From the sequence record OK570375: 64,000 nt of DNA; one strand, written 5' to 3'. Shown in pieces: positions 2,397-14,583 of this stretch; within the stretch, counting starts at the first letter, position 1; each line of letters begins with the position of its first letter. The notes under the pieces are model-generated. The model was given only the letters and a program-made list of their open reading frames with translations. It was not told where the DNA came from and did no database searches. Source of the stretch: Escherichia phage UoN_LDJ77_1. The position numbers and the translations under genes were made by a program.

Positions 2397-2705
2397 TTAT
2401 TTACCAATAAATTGGAGTAAATGCTCAACTTTCATACCATTAACAGAAATCAATTTGTCAATAGAAAAACCTCGCCATGCACCGAGTTCAACATCAAATA
2501 TCGGAATCATATCAGTAGATTCTTTCCGAGTAGATTCAGTCAATTTACCGGTTTGCATAGTTGGCATAAAGTCAGCATCACGAGTGCCTTTCATAGTACG
2601 AATAGTACCATCAGACTTTTCAAAAACCACGTTTGAAATACCCATGGACAATTTAGTTTTCAAAATTTCACGAATTGCTACTTTCTGTTCAGTTGTCAAT
2701 TTCAT
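2397..2705 (-). CDS. hypothetical protein (102 aa, 31.1 position)
   Basis: ORF track; synteny. Confidence 0.5.
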   Translation of the reverse strand: MKLTTEQKVAIREILKTKLSMGISNVVFEKSDGTIRTMKGTRDADFMPTMQTGKLTESTRKESTDMIPIFDVELGAWRGFSIDKLISVNGMKVEHLLQFIGK

Positions 2706-9093: not shown

Positions 9094-9596
9094 TTAAAAA
9101 TATTTTTTAAAACTCATCATAACTTTATCATCAACATCATTATCAATCTGTGCAACAAGATAAGATGACAGTTCTACTTCTTGTGGCGCGGATTGAACAT
9201 TATCAGAATTAAGGTATTCACGAATCCAAGGATATGGATGTTTAACCGGAGCATCGGTAATTGGGCATGGAAGACCGCACTGTTTCATACGAGATACAGT
9301 TAAATAATCAATAAAGCTCCACATGCTATTTGTATTTAATCCAGGAACATCGCCGTCTTTAAATAAATGAATTGCCCAATCTTTTTCTTGGCGGTTAACT
9401 TCCATGAAAATATCAACTGCTTCTTGTTCACACTCTTGAGCAATTTTAACCCATTCATCGCCATCAGTGCCAAGTTGAAGTTGACGAATAATATATTGGG
9501 TGCCTTTAAGGTGAAGCTGCTCATCACGTGCAATGAACTTCATAATCTTGGCATTACCTTCCATGATTTCCATATTCTTGTGGAAGTTAAAGGTAC
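9094..9596 (-). CDS. nrdB: ribonucleotide reductase small subunit NrdB, exon 2
   Basis: C-terminal R2 homology (MEGNAKIM..., SSYLVAQID); predicted 3' splice site after intron-terminal G at 9597. Confidence 0.8.
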
Positions 9597-9732
9597 CGTT
9601 ATGTTCGATTGAGCTCGCTAATTCTCAACCCGTTCTCTTATGAACTGCTACATATTACTATGCAGACCAGACTATATCACAATCCCAGAGGGATTCTCCC
9701 CATTTCGAGTCGCTTGACCCTACGTCCGAAGA

Positions 9733-10542
9733 CTAGTCGTTGAACCTTGCTTTACAATTGTCGCCGTGCCATCGTTTATATGTTGATGGTGATAAATCTT
9801 TCTTATCACAATATGGACAATTCAATTGAATTCTATTTGGATTTAATTTACATCTGTCATTATGTTTTAGATAAAATCCAGGACCTTTACCAATGTGACC
9901 GCAGAAATCACATGTGATTTCTTTTTGTGCAGGATGGGTCCCGTTCTTAACCATTTCTAATGTTTTTGCTGATGTTCTTTTCTTATGGTCTTCTGACAAG
10001 AAATGATGTGAACCGTCATTTACCCGTTTTGATTGAGTTTCTGACTGCATTTTACCACCGCAAAATACATGAGTACCTTCTTTTATAGCTGCAATATTGC
10101 GTTCTTTAACTTTTGCAATATGCTCAGCTTGTTGAAAATTATGTATACCTAATGCAACTCTATTTAAATTAGATTTACGCTGTATTTCACCGTCTAAAAG
10201 ATGAAATGTACCATTTTCTATCTTAGATTTAATAGAGGCAATATTTTTAGCTCGTACTTCAGGGATATTAAAAATCTGGATTTCTCTAGATTTTGCGGCT
10301 TTAGAAGCTAATTCAGAAATTTCTTCAGGAGAATATTTCATTCTAAGCTTTATAGCATGACAAGCCTGGTAATCTTTTTGAGCTAAATGTATATCATAAT
10401 GTTCCTGTATAGAAAGGCACATCAAATTATCTAAATCATTATTTTCACGGTTACCGTCTTTATGATGGATTTCGTATGTTCTTCCATCAGAATCTTTAGG
10501 TATAGGTCCGTTAGCATCTATCCAAATTTTTCTATAGTTCAA
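9733..10542 (-). CDS. intron-encoded HNH homing endonuclease, I-TevIII-like, full length (269 aa)
   Basis: HNH motif EIHHKDGNRENNDLDNLMCL...EH and C-terminal Cys-rich zinc fingers; inside nrdB intron. Confidence 0.85.
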   Translation of the reverse strand: MNYRKIWIDANGPIPKDSDGRTYEIHHKDGNRENNDLDNLMCLSIQEHYDIHLAQKDYQACHAIKLRMKYSPEEISELASKAAKSREIQIFNIPEVRAKNIASIKSKIENGTFHLLDGEIQRKSNLNRVALGIHNFQQAEHIAKVKERNIAAIKEGTHVFCGGKMQSETQSKRVNDGSHHFLSEDHKKRTSAKTLEMVKNGTHPAQKEITCDFCGHIGKGPGFYLKHNDRCKLNPNRIQLNCPYCDKKDLSPSTYKRWHGDNCKARFND

Positions 10543-10569
10543 TTGTGCATCCTCTTAAAAGTATAATCA

Positions 10570-10577
10570 TATTTATA
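10570..10577 (-). promoter_or_regulatory. candidate T4-type late promoter (TATAAATA) upstream of intron ORF
   Basis: Exact TATAAATA on minus strand 27 nt upstream of the endonuclease ATG. Confidence 0.4.
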
Positions 10578-10687
10578 TTATACTAATTAAAGGTGCAAGC
10601 AAAACCTTGGCTGCTAGTTTTCCTATAAAGGACTTTCCAGCAATTAAAGGAGTTTTCGATAAACGTTACCGTTTAAAGGCGCATTTT

Positions 10688-11363
10688 ACGCAAAAGATAC
10701 ATAAAAACGAATAGCTTCTAAGGCATTAATAACGTGTAAACAGAGGTAAAGAGACTTCATTAAAGCACGTTTAGCTTCGGCTTCTTGTTTAATAGCTCGG
10801 TTTAAACGAAAGTCGGCATCAGGAGATTCTTTAGCTAGTTCTACAAATTCTTTAGCATTTTCCCATTCACGGGTTTTAACCAAGACATCATCATAATAGC
10901 GACCGATAGATTCAGCACGTTTCATGATAGCTTCATCTAATACAATCTCATCAAATACCTTCGATGGATCAGTATAAAGATTTCGCATGATATGAGTATA
11001 TGAACGACTGTGAATAGTTTCACTAAAAGTCCATGTAGCAACCCATGTATCAAGGCTTGGGTCTGAAATTAATGACATAAGTACAGCAGACGGCGCACGG
11101 CCCTGAATGCTATCCAAAAGTGATTGATACTTCAGGTTGTTAGTAAAAATATTTTGCTGATACTGAGGAAGCTTATTAAACTGTGCAGCATCCATCATTA
11201 AGTTTACTTCTTCGGGACGCCAGAAAAATGATAAGGACTTCTCTGTAAGTTCTTCAAATACTCGATGCCGTTGAATATCATAACGCGCAATACCAAGACC
11301 TGAACCAAAAAACATAGGTTCTTTTAAAACATCAACTGGATTTGTATTAAAAACTGTGCTCAT
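10688..11363 (-). CDS. nrdB: ribonucleotide reductase small subunit NrdB, exon 1
   Basis: N-terminal R2 homology; track ORF reads through 5' splice site into an intron stop. Confidence 0.8.
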
Positions 11364-11414
11364 AAATTTTCCGCTTAGTTAATAGTTGGTGACTCGTCCA
11401 TGAGTCAAATTATA

Positions 11415-12404
11415 TCATAATTTACAGGATGAACAATCTTCAGCTTTTGGAGTTTCTATTTCATAATCATCAGTACCAGAACCATCACGGGTATTATGAT
11501 AATAGAAATTTTTTCCGCCAAAATACCAAAAATACAAAAGGTCATCAATCATTATTGACATTGGAACCTTGCCTTTAGGGAAGATTTGGGGGTCATAATA
11601 TGTATTCGCTGAAGCTGATTGACACACCCATTTCAGCATAATAGCTACCTGCGTAAGATAAGGTTTATTACCTTTCTTAGCTAATTTCCATGTATAGTCG
11701 TAAAGGTCTATGTTATGCTCAATATTGGGCACGACCTGATTAAAGGAGCCCTCTTTTGATTCTTTAACAGAGACTGGTCCACGTGGAGGCTCGATACCGT
11801 TTGTACTGTTAGAAACTTGGGAAGATGACTCACATGGCATAAGTGCTGATAATGTGCTATTACGGATGCCAAAGAGCTTAAGGTCTTCCCGCAGCGACGA
11901 CCAGTCACAAACGTATTTTGGAGCTGCGATTTGGTCAATCTTTTTATTGTACCAGTCGATAGGTAATTCGCCTCGAGACCAACGAGTGTCTGAATAATAT
12001 TCGCAAGGTCCTTTTTCTTTGGCGAGCTTAATGGATGCTTTAATGAGTCCATACTGTAATCTCTCAAATAGTTCATGTGTTAAATCGTTAGCATCTTCAT
12101 AAGAAGCAAAGTTACTTGCCAGCCAAGCTGCATAGTTAGTAACACCTACACCGAGGTTACGACGCTTTTTAGCTTTTTCTGCTTCAGGAACCGGATATCC
12201 TTGGTAATCCAAAAGATTATCAAGAGCACGAACTTGAACTTCTGCTAATTCATTAATTTTATCTTGGTCTTGCCAGTCAAAATTATCTAGTACGAATGCA
12301 GAGAGAGTACAAAGCCCCACTTCTCCCTTGTTTTCAATAACTTTTATTGTAGTATACTCATCATCTTCGTAAAATTCATCTACAAATTCATAATCAATAT
12401 TCAT
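11415..12404 (-). CDS. nrdA: ribonucleotide reductase large subunit, C-terminal piece (NrdA-b, 329 aa) with its own start
   Basis: Aligns to NrdA from GLCTLSAF onward (NSTLSALMP, C-terminal CxxC tail); ATG overlaps stop of upstream HNH gene. Confidence 0.8.
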   Translation of the reverse strand: MNIDYEFVDEFYEDDEYTTIKVIENKGEVGLCTLSAFVLDNFDWQDQDKINELAEVQVRALDNLLDYQGYPVPEAEKAKKRRNLGVGVTNYAAWLASNFASYEDANDLTHELFERLQYGLIKASIKLAKEKGPCEYYSDTRWSRGELPIDWYNKKIDQIAAPKYVCDWSSLREDLKLFGIRNSTLSALMPCESSSQVSNSTNGIEPPRGPVSVKESKEGSFNQVVPNIEHNIDLYDYTWKLAKKGNKPYLTQVAIMLKWVCQSASANTYYDPQIFPKGKVPMSIMIDDLLYFWYFGGKNFYYHNTRDGSGTDDYEIETPKAEDCSSCKL

Positions 12405-13104
12405 TTAATTCTTTTACCTTTTTTCTAGTAATTCCTAAAGTTTTAGATGCTCGATGTATTGATTGATATTCTATACCGTTTATTTTTACAGCAATTAAGT
12501 TATGGGGTTTTAATCCCTTTGGATGAGGTTTACTGACGAAAACTAAATTATCAAGTTCTGAAATCTTATCCAATTTCTTACACTTAAATCCTTTGTGATG
12601 CGACCGTTTACCTTTACAAACGGCTGACATTGCAGATGGATTTAAATTATGCTCTTTACAAAATTCGTTAAGACCTCGATGAATTTCCTCATGACCATCC
12701 GGAAATGTAAACACCCAAGATGTTTGAAGTCGAGATTTAACTTCTGGAGACATAGGAATACCTTTGTTCCAAGCTGGTTTTCCTTTATTATTTTCAGATA
12801 CAGAAATAGCCAATTTTCTTCTAAGCCACCCATGGCGTTTATTGGTGTTCTTTCGTTCAATATTATCTTCAGAATAAACACACATCATATTAGCGGCAAA
12901 TATCAATTTATGATTATTTGGATATATCTTTACTAATAATTGATGAGCTATGTAATGCTCTTCTGGTGTCAAATCTACCAGGTTTTCCTTTGTATCAGAA
13001 CCACCAATACACAGAGGTATAATATGGTGTGATTCGGTATAGCAATCTAATTTTCTATTCTTAGCTTTAGAAATAAGGTTATTGTAAATTTTAAAATAAT
13101 CCAT
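12394..13104 (-). CDS. free-standing HNH homing endonuclease (236 aa, MobE-like) inserted within nrdA
   Basis: HNH motif ESHHIIPLCIGGSDTKENLVDLTPEEH; own SD AAGAGGAAAA; no group I core elements nearby. Confidence 0.8.
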   Translation of the reverse strand: MDYFKIYNNLISKAKNRKLDCYTESHHIIPLCIGGSDTKENLVDLTPEEHYIAHQLLVKIYPNNHKLIFAANMMCVYSEDNIERKNTNKRHGWLRRKLAISVSENNKGKPAWNKGIPMSPEVKSRLQTSWVFTFPDGHEEIHRGLNEFCKEHNLNPSAMSAVCKGKRSHHKGFKCKKLDKISELDNLVFVSKPHPKGLKPHNLIAVKINGIEYQSIHRASKTLGITRKKVKELNEY

Positions 13105-13149
13105 AACTTTTCCTCTTGTTATGGATTATTTATTAACGGTCTGTGTACT

Positions 13150-14583
13150 TTATTTGCTTTGAATTATACCGCCAGGATTAGCTTCATAAAACTTAGCTAC
13201 ATCCGACTTCTTAATTTTGATTAAACGAGTTTGTTGGCTATTCACATCATTTGTTGGAATAGCAATTTCACAACATAAGTTACTCTGACGAATAGGTGCC
13301 TTTTCACGAATAAACGGAGTATAGTTATTCGTATTATCAATGAACTGTACATAAATCCTTGCTGTTCCTGAACGTTCAGTCATGAGCAATTCAAATAGTT
13401 CACGGGCTTTAATACGCTTTTTACGAATATTAGGGTCTTTTTCTGCTGCTTCGTATAATTCACGGAAACGGTCTTGGTCTTTAAAATAAGAATAATAAAG
13501 CTCGCCACCCATTTCATGCGGACTGAACAAAGTAATGTAATCGTTCTTTCCGAATCGTTCCATCATCAAATCATTCAGCTGAACACCATAATCCATATGA
13601 CGGATACGGTTTTCTTCTACGCCTTTGTTATTTTTCAAAACGAGAAGATTTTCAACTTCCAAATGCCAAATAGGATAATAAGCAGTAGCAGCGCCGCCAC
13701 GAATTCCGCCCTGTGAGCATGATTTAACAGCAGTCTGAAAATGTTTCCAAAAAGGAATAACCCCAGTATGGCGTACTTCACCCATGCCAATCTTAGAACC
13801 TTCGGCACGAATCATACCAACGTTAATACCAATTCCAGCGCGTTTAGAGATATATTCAACAATTGAAGCGGAAGCCTTATTGATAGACTTCAGCGAATCA
13901 CCTGCCTCAATAACAACACATGAACTAAACTGTCGAGTCGGAGTACGACAACCAGCCATAATAGGAGTTGGCAGTGAAATCTGTCGAGTAGATACTGCTT
14001 CATAAAAACGGATAACATGTTTTAATCTATCAACAGGTTCATCTTGATGCAATGCCATTCCAATAGCCATAAATGCAAACTGTGGAGTTTCATAAATTTG
14101 ACCAGTGGTTTTATCTTTAACTAGATATTTTTCTTTTAATTGCATCGCCCCAGAATAAGTAAATTCCATATCCCGTTCATGCTTAATTTTTGATTCTAAA
14201 AATGTAATTTCTTCTGCTGAATATTTTGACAATAATTCAGGGTCATATTTACCTTCATTTACACAGTAAGAAATATGGTCAATAAATGAACGTGGTTCAT
14301 ACTGCCCATAAACATGCTTACGAAGAGCGAACATTAAACAGCGTGCAGCTACATATTGATAATCAGGCTCTTCAACCGAAATAGAATTCGCAGCAGCCTT
14401 AATGACAATAGTCTGAATGTCATCAGTTGTCATTCCATCACGGAGATATGATTTAATATTTTCATATAATTCATAAGGATCTACTGATGTTCCCTCAGAT
14501 GCCCAAGATAAAACTTTAATAATTTTTTGCGGGTCAAAGCTCTGAGAAACACCACTACTTTTGATAACATTAATTAATTGCAT
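13150..14583 (-). CDS. nrdA: ribonucleotide reductase large subunit, N-terminal piece (NrdA-a, 477 aa)
   Basis: NrdA homology through active-site SNLCCEIAIPTNDVN, then a 29-aa non-homologous tail and stop. Confidence 0.85.
   Translation of the reverse strand: MQLINVIKSSGVSQSFDPQKIIKVLSWASEGTSVDPYELYENIKSYLRDGMTTDDIQTIVIKAAANSISVEEPDYQYVAARCLMFALRKHVYGQYEPRSFIDHISYCVNEGKYDPELLSKYSAEEITFLESKIKHERDMEFTYSGAMQLKEKYLVKDKTTGQIYETPQFAFMAIGMALHQDEPVDRLKHVIRFYEAVSTRQISLPTPIMAGCRTPTRQFSSCVVIEAGDSLKSINKASASIVEYISKRAGIGINVGMIRAEGSKIGMGEVRHTGVIPFWKHFQTAVKSCSQGGIRGGAATAYYPIWHLEVENLLVLKNNKGVEENRIRHMDYGVQLNDLMMERFGKNDYITLFSPHEMGGELYYSYFKDQDRFRELYEAAEKDPNIRKKRIKARELFELLMTERSGTARIYVQFIDNTNNYTPFIREKAPIRQSNLCCEIAIPTNDVNSQQTRLIKIKKSDVAKFYEANPGGIIQSK

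Follow-up and report, generated by a model that had tools for sequence, protein, structure and literature searches.

How does a T4-like phage keep the large subunit of its ribonucleotide reductase (RNR) when the gene for it, nrdA, is cut in two by an endonuclease gene? The question is raised by Escherichia phage UoN_LDJ77_1 (sequence record OK570375), of which a stretch of 64,000 nucleotides (nt), the window, was analysed. A reading of the letters without database searches, here the sequence-only reading, had noticed that nrdA is split there into two open reading frames (ORFs), NrdA-a and NrdA-b, around a free-standing HNH homing endonuclease gene, and had likened this to the gene in pieces of Aeromonas phage Aeh1. 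We conclude that nrdA very probably carries a cassette of the Aeh1 mobE type, in which the split enzyme would be reassembled by peptide tails, the endonuclease gene mobE would be silenced early, and the whole would home into intact alleles. The phenomenon itself is already known from Aeh1 (Friedrich et al. 2007; Crona et al. 2011; Gibb & Edgell 2007, 2009). What is new is a conserved mobile family, with the tails, a hairpin and a recoded target as integral parts, in convenient coliphages.

The split gene and the borders of the cassette

The gene order on the minus strand is that of a T4-like phage (Tequatrovirus): frd, td, nrdA.2 and nrdA.1, and then nrdA and nrdB. The parts of the split gene and of the cassette are as follows, with lengths of proteins in amino acid residues (aa).

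13150..14583, minus strand: nrdA-a coding sequence (CDS), 477 aa; it has the ATP-cone, the all-alpha domain and the RNR-barrel profile up to position ~221
12394..13104, minus strand: mobE CDS (the HNH ORF), 236 aa; free-standing HNH homing endonuclease
11415..12404, minus strand: nrdA-b CDS, 329 aa; the remaining RNR barrel, profile positions 219-523
12312..13236, minus strand: the whole mobile cassette, 925 nt; it stands in for 21 nt encoding PDAEIGL, a net gain of 904 nt
13153..13236, minus strand: tail-a, 28 codons on NrdA-a (QQTRLIKIKKSDVAKFYEANPGGIIQSK); basic, isoelectric point (pI) 10.0, net charge ~+4
12333..12404, minus strand: tail-b, 24 codons newly added at the N-terminus of NrdA-b (MNIDYEFVDEFYEDDEYTTIKVIE); acidic, pI 4.05, net charge ~-8
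12312..12332, minus strand: seven recoded codons, NKGEVGL in place of PDAEIGL; carrier-specific, co-segregating with the cassette allele

All three ORFs lie where the sequence-only reading had placed them, and NrdA-b is in a different frame, as it had said. NrdA-a and the HNH ORF share a frame, and nrdA-b, in another, overlaps the HNH stop codon by 11 nt; the change of frame follows from the net gain of 904 nt. The measures of that reading need small corrections. The gap from the NrdA-a stop to the HNH start is short, at 45 nt instead of ~46; the NrdA-a tail is non-homologous but has 28 aa, not 29; and the novel N-terminus of NrdA-b, put at ~20 residues, consists of 24 aa plus the seven recoded codons before CTLSAF.

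The borders were set against the intact nrdA of Yersinia phage PYps11T, whose flanks are 98-98.6% identical to those of the window. The uninterrupted gene reads NDVNS-PDAEIGL-CTLSAF. In the window, NDVNS is followed by tail-a and a stop codon, and further on tail-b is followed by NKGEVGL-CTLSAF. The Pfam RNR barrel (PF02867) is divided into profile positions 1-221 in NrdA-a and 219-523 in NrdA-b; it follows that the barrel is cut clean, with no residues lost. On E. coli R1 the break lies at D454|E455, in the loop joining the strands that carry C439/E441 and C462. NrdA-a keeps C222, N435, C437 and E439, the equivalents of E. coli Cys225, Asn437, Cys439 and Glu441, and NrdA-b retains C32 (the Cys462 equivalent), the FYY motif for radical transfer and, at the C-terminus, the CSSC pair. 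No intact allele with NKGEVGL turned up when one was sought; the recoded stretch is therefore counted as part of the cassette. The putative MobE target in intact nrdA reads ...AATGATGTGAATAGTCCTGATGCTGAAATTGGATTGTGTACTCTC..., and we infer from the alignments that the recoded codons would destroy it.

The endonuclease itself is well marked. MobE matches PHROG 655 (phrog_655, homing endonuclease; 1e-58), its N-terminal part is an HNH nuclease domain, and residues 135-173 match the Pfam family PF22083 (I-HmuI NUMOD-like) with 38.2 bits, above the cutoff, while HNH family PF01844 scores 18.2 bits, under its cutoff of 21.4. Among 84 homologues H26 and N41 never vary, and H27, H50 and H54 hardly do. 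An AlphaFold2 model built from these homologues has a mean confidence (pLDDT) of 91.5, and its sole significant match in the PDB is I-HmuI (1u3e, E 8e-5). On these grounds MobE is predicted to be a modular I-HmuI-like HNH homing endonuclease, composed of an HNH motif and a NUMOD-type module.

Kinship with Aeh1 and spread among phages

In the phage collection, the closest full-length relative of MobE beyond the coliphage carriers is the MobE of Aeh1, with 45% identity over 227 aa, the full length (E 3e-57). The Aeh1 operon (locus L004) is laid out in the same way.

13208-14629 of L004: nrdA-A
12448-13161 of L004: mobE
11490-12461 of L004: nrdA-B

MobE has 236 aa in the window and 237 aa in Aeh1, the spacer before mobE has 45 and 46 nt, the overlap of mobE and nrdA-b is 11 and 14 nt, and the Cys462 equivalent of NrdA-b is Cys32 and Cys31, respectively. 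Both are broken in one and the same loop, which lies between the equivalents of Cys439 and Cys462. The tails also align, RLIKIKKSDVAKF with MLFKVKKSEVDKF for tail-a and MNIDYEFVDEFYEDDEYTTIKVIE with M-IEHERIYEVYEDEEYTTVEIEV for tail-b, and are homologous, though only ~40-50% identical. The likeness to Aeh1 proposed by the sequence-only reading thus holds for MobE, tails, break site and layout alike. Judged by alignment, every part of the cassette has its homologue in nrdA-a/mobE/nrdA-b of Aeh1, and the likeness goes beyond analogy. The gene context differs: the window has a T4-type nrdA in the canonical td-nrdA-nrdB position, whereas the Aeh1 nrd operon lies elsewhere, near nrdD.

For Aeh1 there is biochemistry. 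Its tails have pIs of 10.4 and 3.8, are indispensable for activity, and help the (NrdA-a/NrdA-b)2 tetramer and the holoenzyme to form (Crona et al. 2011, PMC3045599). NrdA-a and NrdA-b stay separate polypeptides in the active enzyme, and the solution was judged distinct from RNA or protein splicing (PMC3045599). Unspliced messenger RNA and active reassembled enzyme have been shown experimentally for Aeh1 only (PMC3045599, citing Friedrich et al. 2007).

Relatives from uncultured phages lie between the two. A large protein search found full-length MobE homologues in metagenome assemblies, graded from 66% down to 50% identity. In the six examined (L012, L013, L014, L015, L016 and L018), mobE is flanked by an NrdA-a of ~475 aa and by an NrdA-b of ~326 aa that overlaps it; the surroundings are T4-like and the insertion site is the same. 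All six have both tails, with the charge pattern retained, and by sequence these lineages form a bridge from the coliphage cassette to Aeh1. One MobE homologue of 39% identity is located elsewhere, not in a split nrdA.

Both tails are conserved in six aligned lineages and recognisable in L016 and L018. Tail-a has the core L-[IVF]-K-[IV]-[KR]-K-[SK]-[DE]-[IV]-x-x-F, and the tail-b motif E-x-YED-x-EYTT is unchanged in all six aligned lineages; the opposite charges are preserved among lineages, with pIs of ~10 and ~4. Over six cassettes, whose synonymous sites are almost saturated (pS 0.6-0.8), tail-a has a ratio of nonsynonymous to synonymous differences (pN/pS) of 0.39 and tail-b one of 0.32. 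Both tails, in other words, evolve in the manner of protein-coding DNA, with purifying selection acting on them. The motifs E-x-YED-x-EYTT and L-x-K-x-[KR]-K-x-[DE] can serve as a diagnostic for annotating the split.

Among cultured phages the cassette is present in 34 GenBank/RefSeq records, corresponding to about 27 phages of E. coli, Shigella, Yersinia and Salmonella (Tequatrovirus and Mosigvirus), while hundreds of close relatives, some with 98% identical flanks, have an intact nrdA. It is 97-100% identical between carriers, except for a two-allele segment in the C-terminal half of mobE. In contrast, nrdA-a of Tequatrovirus-type and Mosigvirus-type backgrounds differs with a synonymous divergence (dS) of 2.3-2.7 and a ratio of nonsynonymous to synonymous divergence (omega) of 0.04, and identity jumps at the cassette border. 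A near-identical cassette inside synonymously saturated nrdA backgrounds indicates that it has spread laterally and recently. Among Tequatrovirus carriers alone, omega for NrdA-a is 0.02. The cassette alleles differ mainly in the C-terminal half of MobE, plus synonymous changes in the NKGEVGL codons; since each allele is found in both backgrounds, the recoded stretch travels with the cassette. Between diverged backgrounds identity climbs to 97% over the ~60 nt that precede the junction, a stretch that also encodes the active-site loop, and co-conversion and active-site constraint are inseparable here as causes of the rise. The coliphage cassette, unlike that of Aeh1, is seen spreading among near-identical genomes and in two alleles.

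The two-allele segment (12531..12755, codons ~117-192; columns 546-770 of alignment A3) includes the NUMOD-like domain, and its alleles have ~70% nt identity. In phage F2 it is a mosaic of both. Carriers F26, FL23/FL44, IME537 and 236Ecol005PP have 0.7-1.6 kb of extra DNA in the nrdA region, annotated as endonuclease, methylase or hypothetical.

No paper on the coliphage nrdA split was found in the searchable literature library, and the split is currently mis-annotated, with halves lacking annotation or nrdA called absent. RefSeq calls the vB_EcoM_112 gene "MobE" and gives two NrdA CDSs; the record of HY01 (L009, NC_027349.1) has no CDS for either half, and SH-2 has "hypothetical proteins". 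The paper on vB_EcoM-UFV13 puts nrdA among genes 'not predicted' (PMC5931544). In the record of UFV-AREG1 (L011, NC_031030.2 136500-141500; locus 2486..2680), an intact-type allele, NDVNSPDAEIGLCTLSAF...LLDYQ, is followed by N and then by a cassette-type allele, yielding a 500-aa 'nrdA_2'. This joint is probably a mis-assembly or the product of a mixed stock of carrier and non-carrier phage.

Control of mobE and the proposed mechanism

The 45-nt spacer between nrdA-a and mobE, with its borders, contains the candidate control elements.

13105..13149, minus strand: spacer, 45 nt, from the NrdA-a stop to the mobE start; the sole insert sequence outside ORFs
13142..13149, minus strand: conserved spacer motif AGTACACA, consensus TGT[AG]CA[CT]A
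13127..13134, minus strand: late-promoter-like box AATAAATA; it overlaps the hairpin's 5' arm
13094..13131, minus strand: RNA hairpin with a perfect 14-bp stem, dG -14.5 kcal/mol

The hairpin has a z-score of -5.0 to -5.4, and none of 200 shuffled sequences folded equally well. It holds the mobE Shine-Dalgarno (SD) sequence AAGAGGA (13111..13117) in its loop and the AUG (13102..13104) in its 3' arm. It is kept in L012, L013 and L014, with three compensatory pairs, and 96% of the alignment cells in the stem are paired, against 31-43% in slid controls; larger hairpins in L015 and Aeh1 cover the SD. A box containing TAAATA overlaps the 5' arm in every lineage, and in L013, L014 and L016 the orthologous box is a perfect T4 late box, TATAAATA. 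We predict that the mobE initiation region is sequestered by the hairpin and that late transcripts lack the inhibitory arm. Such a design of hairpin plus late promoter has been reported for Aeh1 mobE and for I-TevI, I-TevII and I-TevIII, where early read-through RNA folds and blocks translation and the late RNA is without the 5' arm (PMC2988022). In Aeh1, as predicted for the window, the hairpin blocks initiation of mobE translation and overlaps the TAAATA box, with the difference that the window's hairpin buries the AUG and holds the SD in the loop, whereas that of Aeh1 buries the SD.

The motif TGT[AG]CA[CT]A follows the NrdA-a stop directly in all eight lineages (the window, L012-L018 and Aeh1), 0-9 nt from the late-promoter box. 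As a mimic of the nrdA target at the Cys462 codon it fits several lineages, Aeh1 among them, yet not L016, and this idea was dropped. The motif might serve MobE as an operator, in the manner of I-TevI autorepression, or mark a site of RNA processing.

In the mechanism that we propose, a free-standing HNH cassette would have been inserted in the nrdA loop between the Cys439/Glu441 and Cys462 strands. Its order would be the basic 28-codon tail and stop, the spacer with late box and hairpin, mobE, the ATG and acidic tail codons, and the recoded codons. By analogy with Aeh1, NrdA-a and NrdA-b would pair as a heterodimer with a composite active site, and the oppositely charged tails would be required for a (NrdA-a/NrdA-b)2 dimer of heterodimers and for an active holoenzyme with NrdB2. 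From the layout of the spacer, the hairpin may silence mobE on early and middle read-through transcripts, and the late promoter may give mobE transcripts without the 5' arm of the hairpin and so late expression. MobE would then cut the intact nrdA of co-infecting phages, and repair would copy in the entire cassette with its tails, as the comparative data suggest. Since the tails would be copied along with the cassette, insertion would be near neutral for the recipient.

With somewhat more hope than doubt, we extend this to a self-neutralising mobile element that combines an endonuclease gene with portable charged tags reassembling the split protein, a silencer and a recoded target, and that spreads by homing across T4-like genera. 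The claim of spread covers Tequatrovirus and Mosigvirus coliphages now, and at least eight diverged lineages including Aeh1. The split RNR of Aeh1 has so far been a single curiosity, whose authors speculated on the origin of the tails and on whether tails of this sort neutralise gene fragmentation in general. About 27 T4-like coliphages, six uncultured lineages and sharp borders against diverged host genes turn this one-off into a family, and the findings support the notion that the "antidote" to gene splitting is part of the mobile element. If so, the tails would be inherited with mobE, which would settle where they come from, a question that Crona et al. did not close, and they would represent a natural split-protein complementation module. 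The system is now found in E. coli T-even phages, in which homing is routinely assayed by mixed infection and both phage genetics and RNR biochemistry are everyday practice.

Several points weigh against this picture. All functional steps are transferred by analogy from Aeh1, at 45-57% protein identity. The late box of the window is only a 7/8 match to the T4 late box, the covariation in the hairpin is based on just four distinct sequences, and the SD of nrdA-b is weak and distant (AAGG, ~11 nt 5' of the ATG). Furthermore, the purifying selection measured on the nrdA flanks is mostly older than the insertion. Finally, T4 nrdA is non-essential on nrd+ hosts, and selection for a working split enzyme is therefore not guaranteed.

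That same dispensability favours another view, in which the insertion has inactivated nrdA, the ORFs are decaying remnants and the phage uses the host RNR; the unannotated halves of HY01 and the listing of nrdA as absent (PMC5931544) would fit it too. However, both halves are intact ORFs with their catalytic residues in all carriers examined, NrdA-a is under strong constraint among Tequatrovirus carriers (the omega of 0.02 given above), and the Aeh1 homologue is fully active (PMC3045599). Above all, the added tails are conserved under purifying selection across cassettes whose MobE proteins have diverged to 45% identity, a pattern to be expected only if the split products are in use. We regard inactivation as unlikely. 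An assembly or sequencing error, for which the N-containing joint in the UFV-AREG1 record might be cited, has practically no probability left: the 925-nt cassette with identical junctions recurs in about 27 phages, each sequenced independently, and in numerous contigs from metagenomes, and the 34 database records dispose of the sequence error that the sequence-only reading had named as a possible refutation.

Could the break be repaired by splicing instead? In T-even phages td, nrdB and nrdD are homes of group I introns, the window's own nrdB has one, and if AGC (Ser449) were joined directly to AAC AAG GGA..., the product would have exactly the native length. Yet two Rfam cmscan runs left the insert without any RF00028 match, one at E<=1 and one, over 12200..13350, at E<=10, whereas the nrdB intron in the same window was detected (E 1e-4). 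Only the 45 nt of the spacer lie outside ORFs, and the would-be intron ends are kept as peptides in eight lineages; in the six aligned by codon they change mainly at synonymous third positions, with a pN/pS of 0.3-0.4. The homologous Aeh1 arrangement is reported as unspliced (PMC3045599; PMC3653736). A group I intron with an endonuclease ORF, whose splicing restores a continuous nrdA, is thus very improbable, and the blank scans agree with the remark of the sequence-only reading that no group I elements are visible.

An even smaller chance is given to the idea that the tails are split-intein halves and that the NrdA halves are joined by protein trans-splicing. A HINT domain has ~130 aa, and the tails, which sum to 52 aa, fall far short of it. 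No Hint/intein domain is found by Pfam in the products of nrdA-a, of mobE and of nrdA-b, and tail profiles compared with the mini-intein of L013 (described below) by hhalign have a probability of 0.1%. NrdA-a ends in a stop codon, NrdA-b is frame-shifted, and tail-b is not directly followed by Cys, Ser or Thr, with seven native-like residues in between. What speaks for the idea is the company that the cassette keeps. The gene order is identical to that of genes fractured by split inteins (Dassa et al. 2009, PMC2677866), namely host N-terminal part plus peptide, endonuclease gene, and peptide plus host C-terminal part; nrdA is a frequent target there, and the two peptides have been proposed to attract each other electrostatically. 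A degenerate intein as the origin was brought up by Crona et al. (PMC3045599), and relatives have real inteins and split inteins nearby, at Cys439 (L013, P0242 and others). In fractured genes, however, the peptides are HINT halves that ligate the exteins, while the window's tails are too short and without intein similarity, and the Aeh1 halves remain unligated, as separate polypeptides in the active enzyme (PMC3045599). Split-intein relatives of nrdA break at Cys439 and the mobE cassette in the later loop. Moreover, L013 holds a complete intein beside the cassette, side by side in one gene, and the two are therefore separate elements. The verdict of the sequence-only reading, neither intron nor intein, is accordingly supported by the Rfam and Pfam results and on tails that evolve as coding sequence.

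Other breaks and endonucleases in RNR genes

The mini-intein of L013 (1107..2951 of an ENA ERZ14207129 contig) is canonical (CLSGDS...ILVHN|C) and lies at the Cys439 codon, 15 codons upstream of the mobE break. The stand-alone sequence P0242 has the same intein C-terminal segment as the C-half of a split intein, fused to NrdA from Cys439 on. In the representative library P0250, P0256, P0297, P0314, P0348, P0360, P0376 and P0343 are stand-alone NrdA C-halves of ~350-380 aa, which start with a split-intein C-fragment of ~32 aa ending in [VI]HN|C at Cys439; in these, nrdA is fractured elsewhere than at the mobE site. Two further loci are split in the same loop as the window but have unrelated tails. 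L019 (1572..4520) has a 47-aa tail on NrdA-a, an acidic 35-aa extension on NrdA-b and, between them, a 146-aa ORF with no PHROG match; in L020 (2..1361) NrdA-a abuts NrdA-b with no gene between. The nrdA loop seems to be a recurrent break point.

T4 has a mobE of its own, whose HNH nuclease domain is related to that of the window's MobE, with 46% identity over the first 133 aa. It occupies the same nrdA/nrdB neighbourhood, but it is intergenic, between nrdA and nrdB, and splits no gene (Wilson & Edgell 2009, PMC2790892). Because the tblastn match stops at residue 133, the C-terminal half of the window and Aeh1 MobEs is without a T4 MobE counterpart. The gap between nrdA-b and nrdB in the window is 51 nt (11364..11414), and so there is no endonuclease gene at the position of T4 mobE. 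The T4 topoisomerase genes 39 and 60, split by mobA, are a further case of Mob-type HNH insertion in the gene of an essential enzyme, with charged tail-like extensions (PMC3045599, PMC2988022), but with a different host gene and a different Mob endonuclease.

The window's nrdB (9094..11363, minus strand) is interrupted as well, by a group I intron at 9574..10685. Its match to Rfam RF00028 (9648..9888, 29.9 bits) is under the gathering score. The intron carries a full-length I-TevIII-like HNH ORF of 269 aa (9733..10542), with a perfect late box, TATAAATA, upstream at 10570..10577. Both interruptions place an HNH endonuclease inside an RNR gene; that of nrdB is removed by RNA splicing, and the nrdA cassette shows no ribozyme. 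Each of the two RNR subunit genes thus has an HNH endonuclease in it, and the phage deals with the two breaks by different means.

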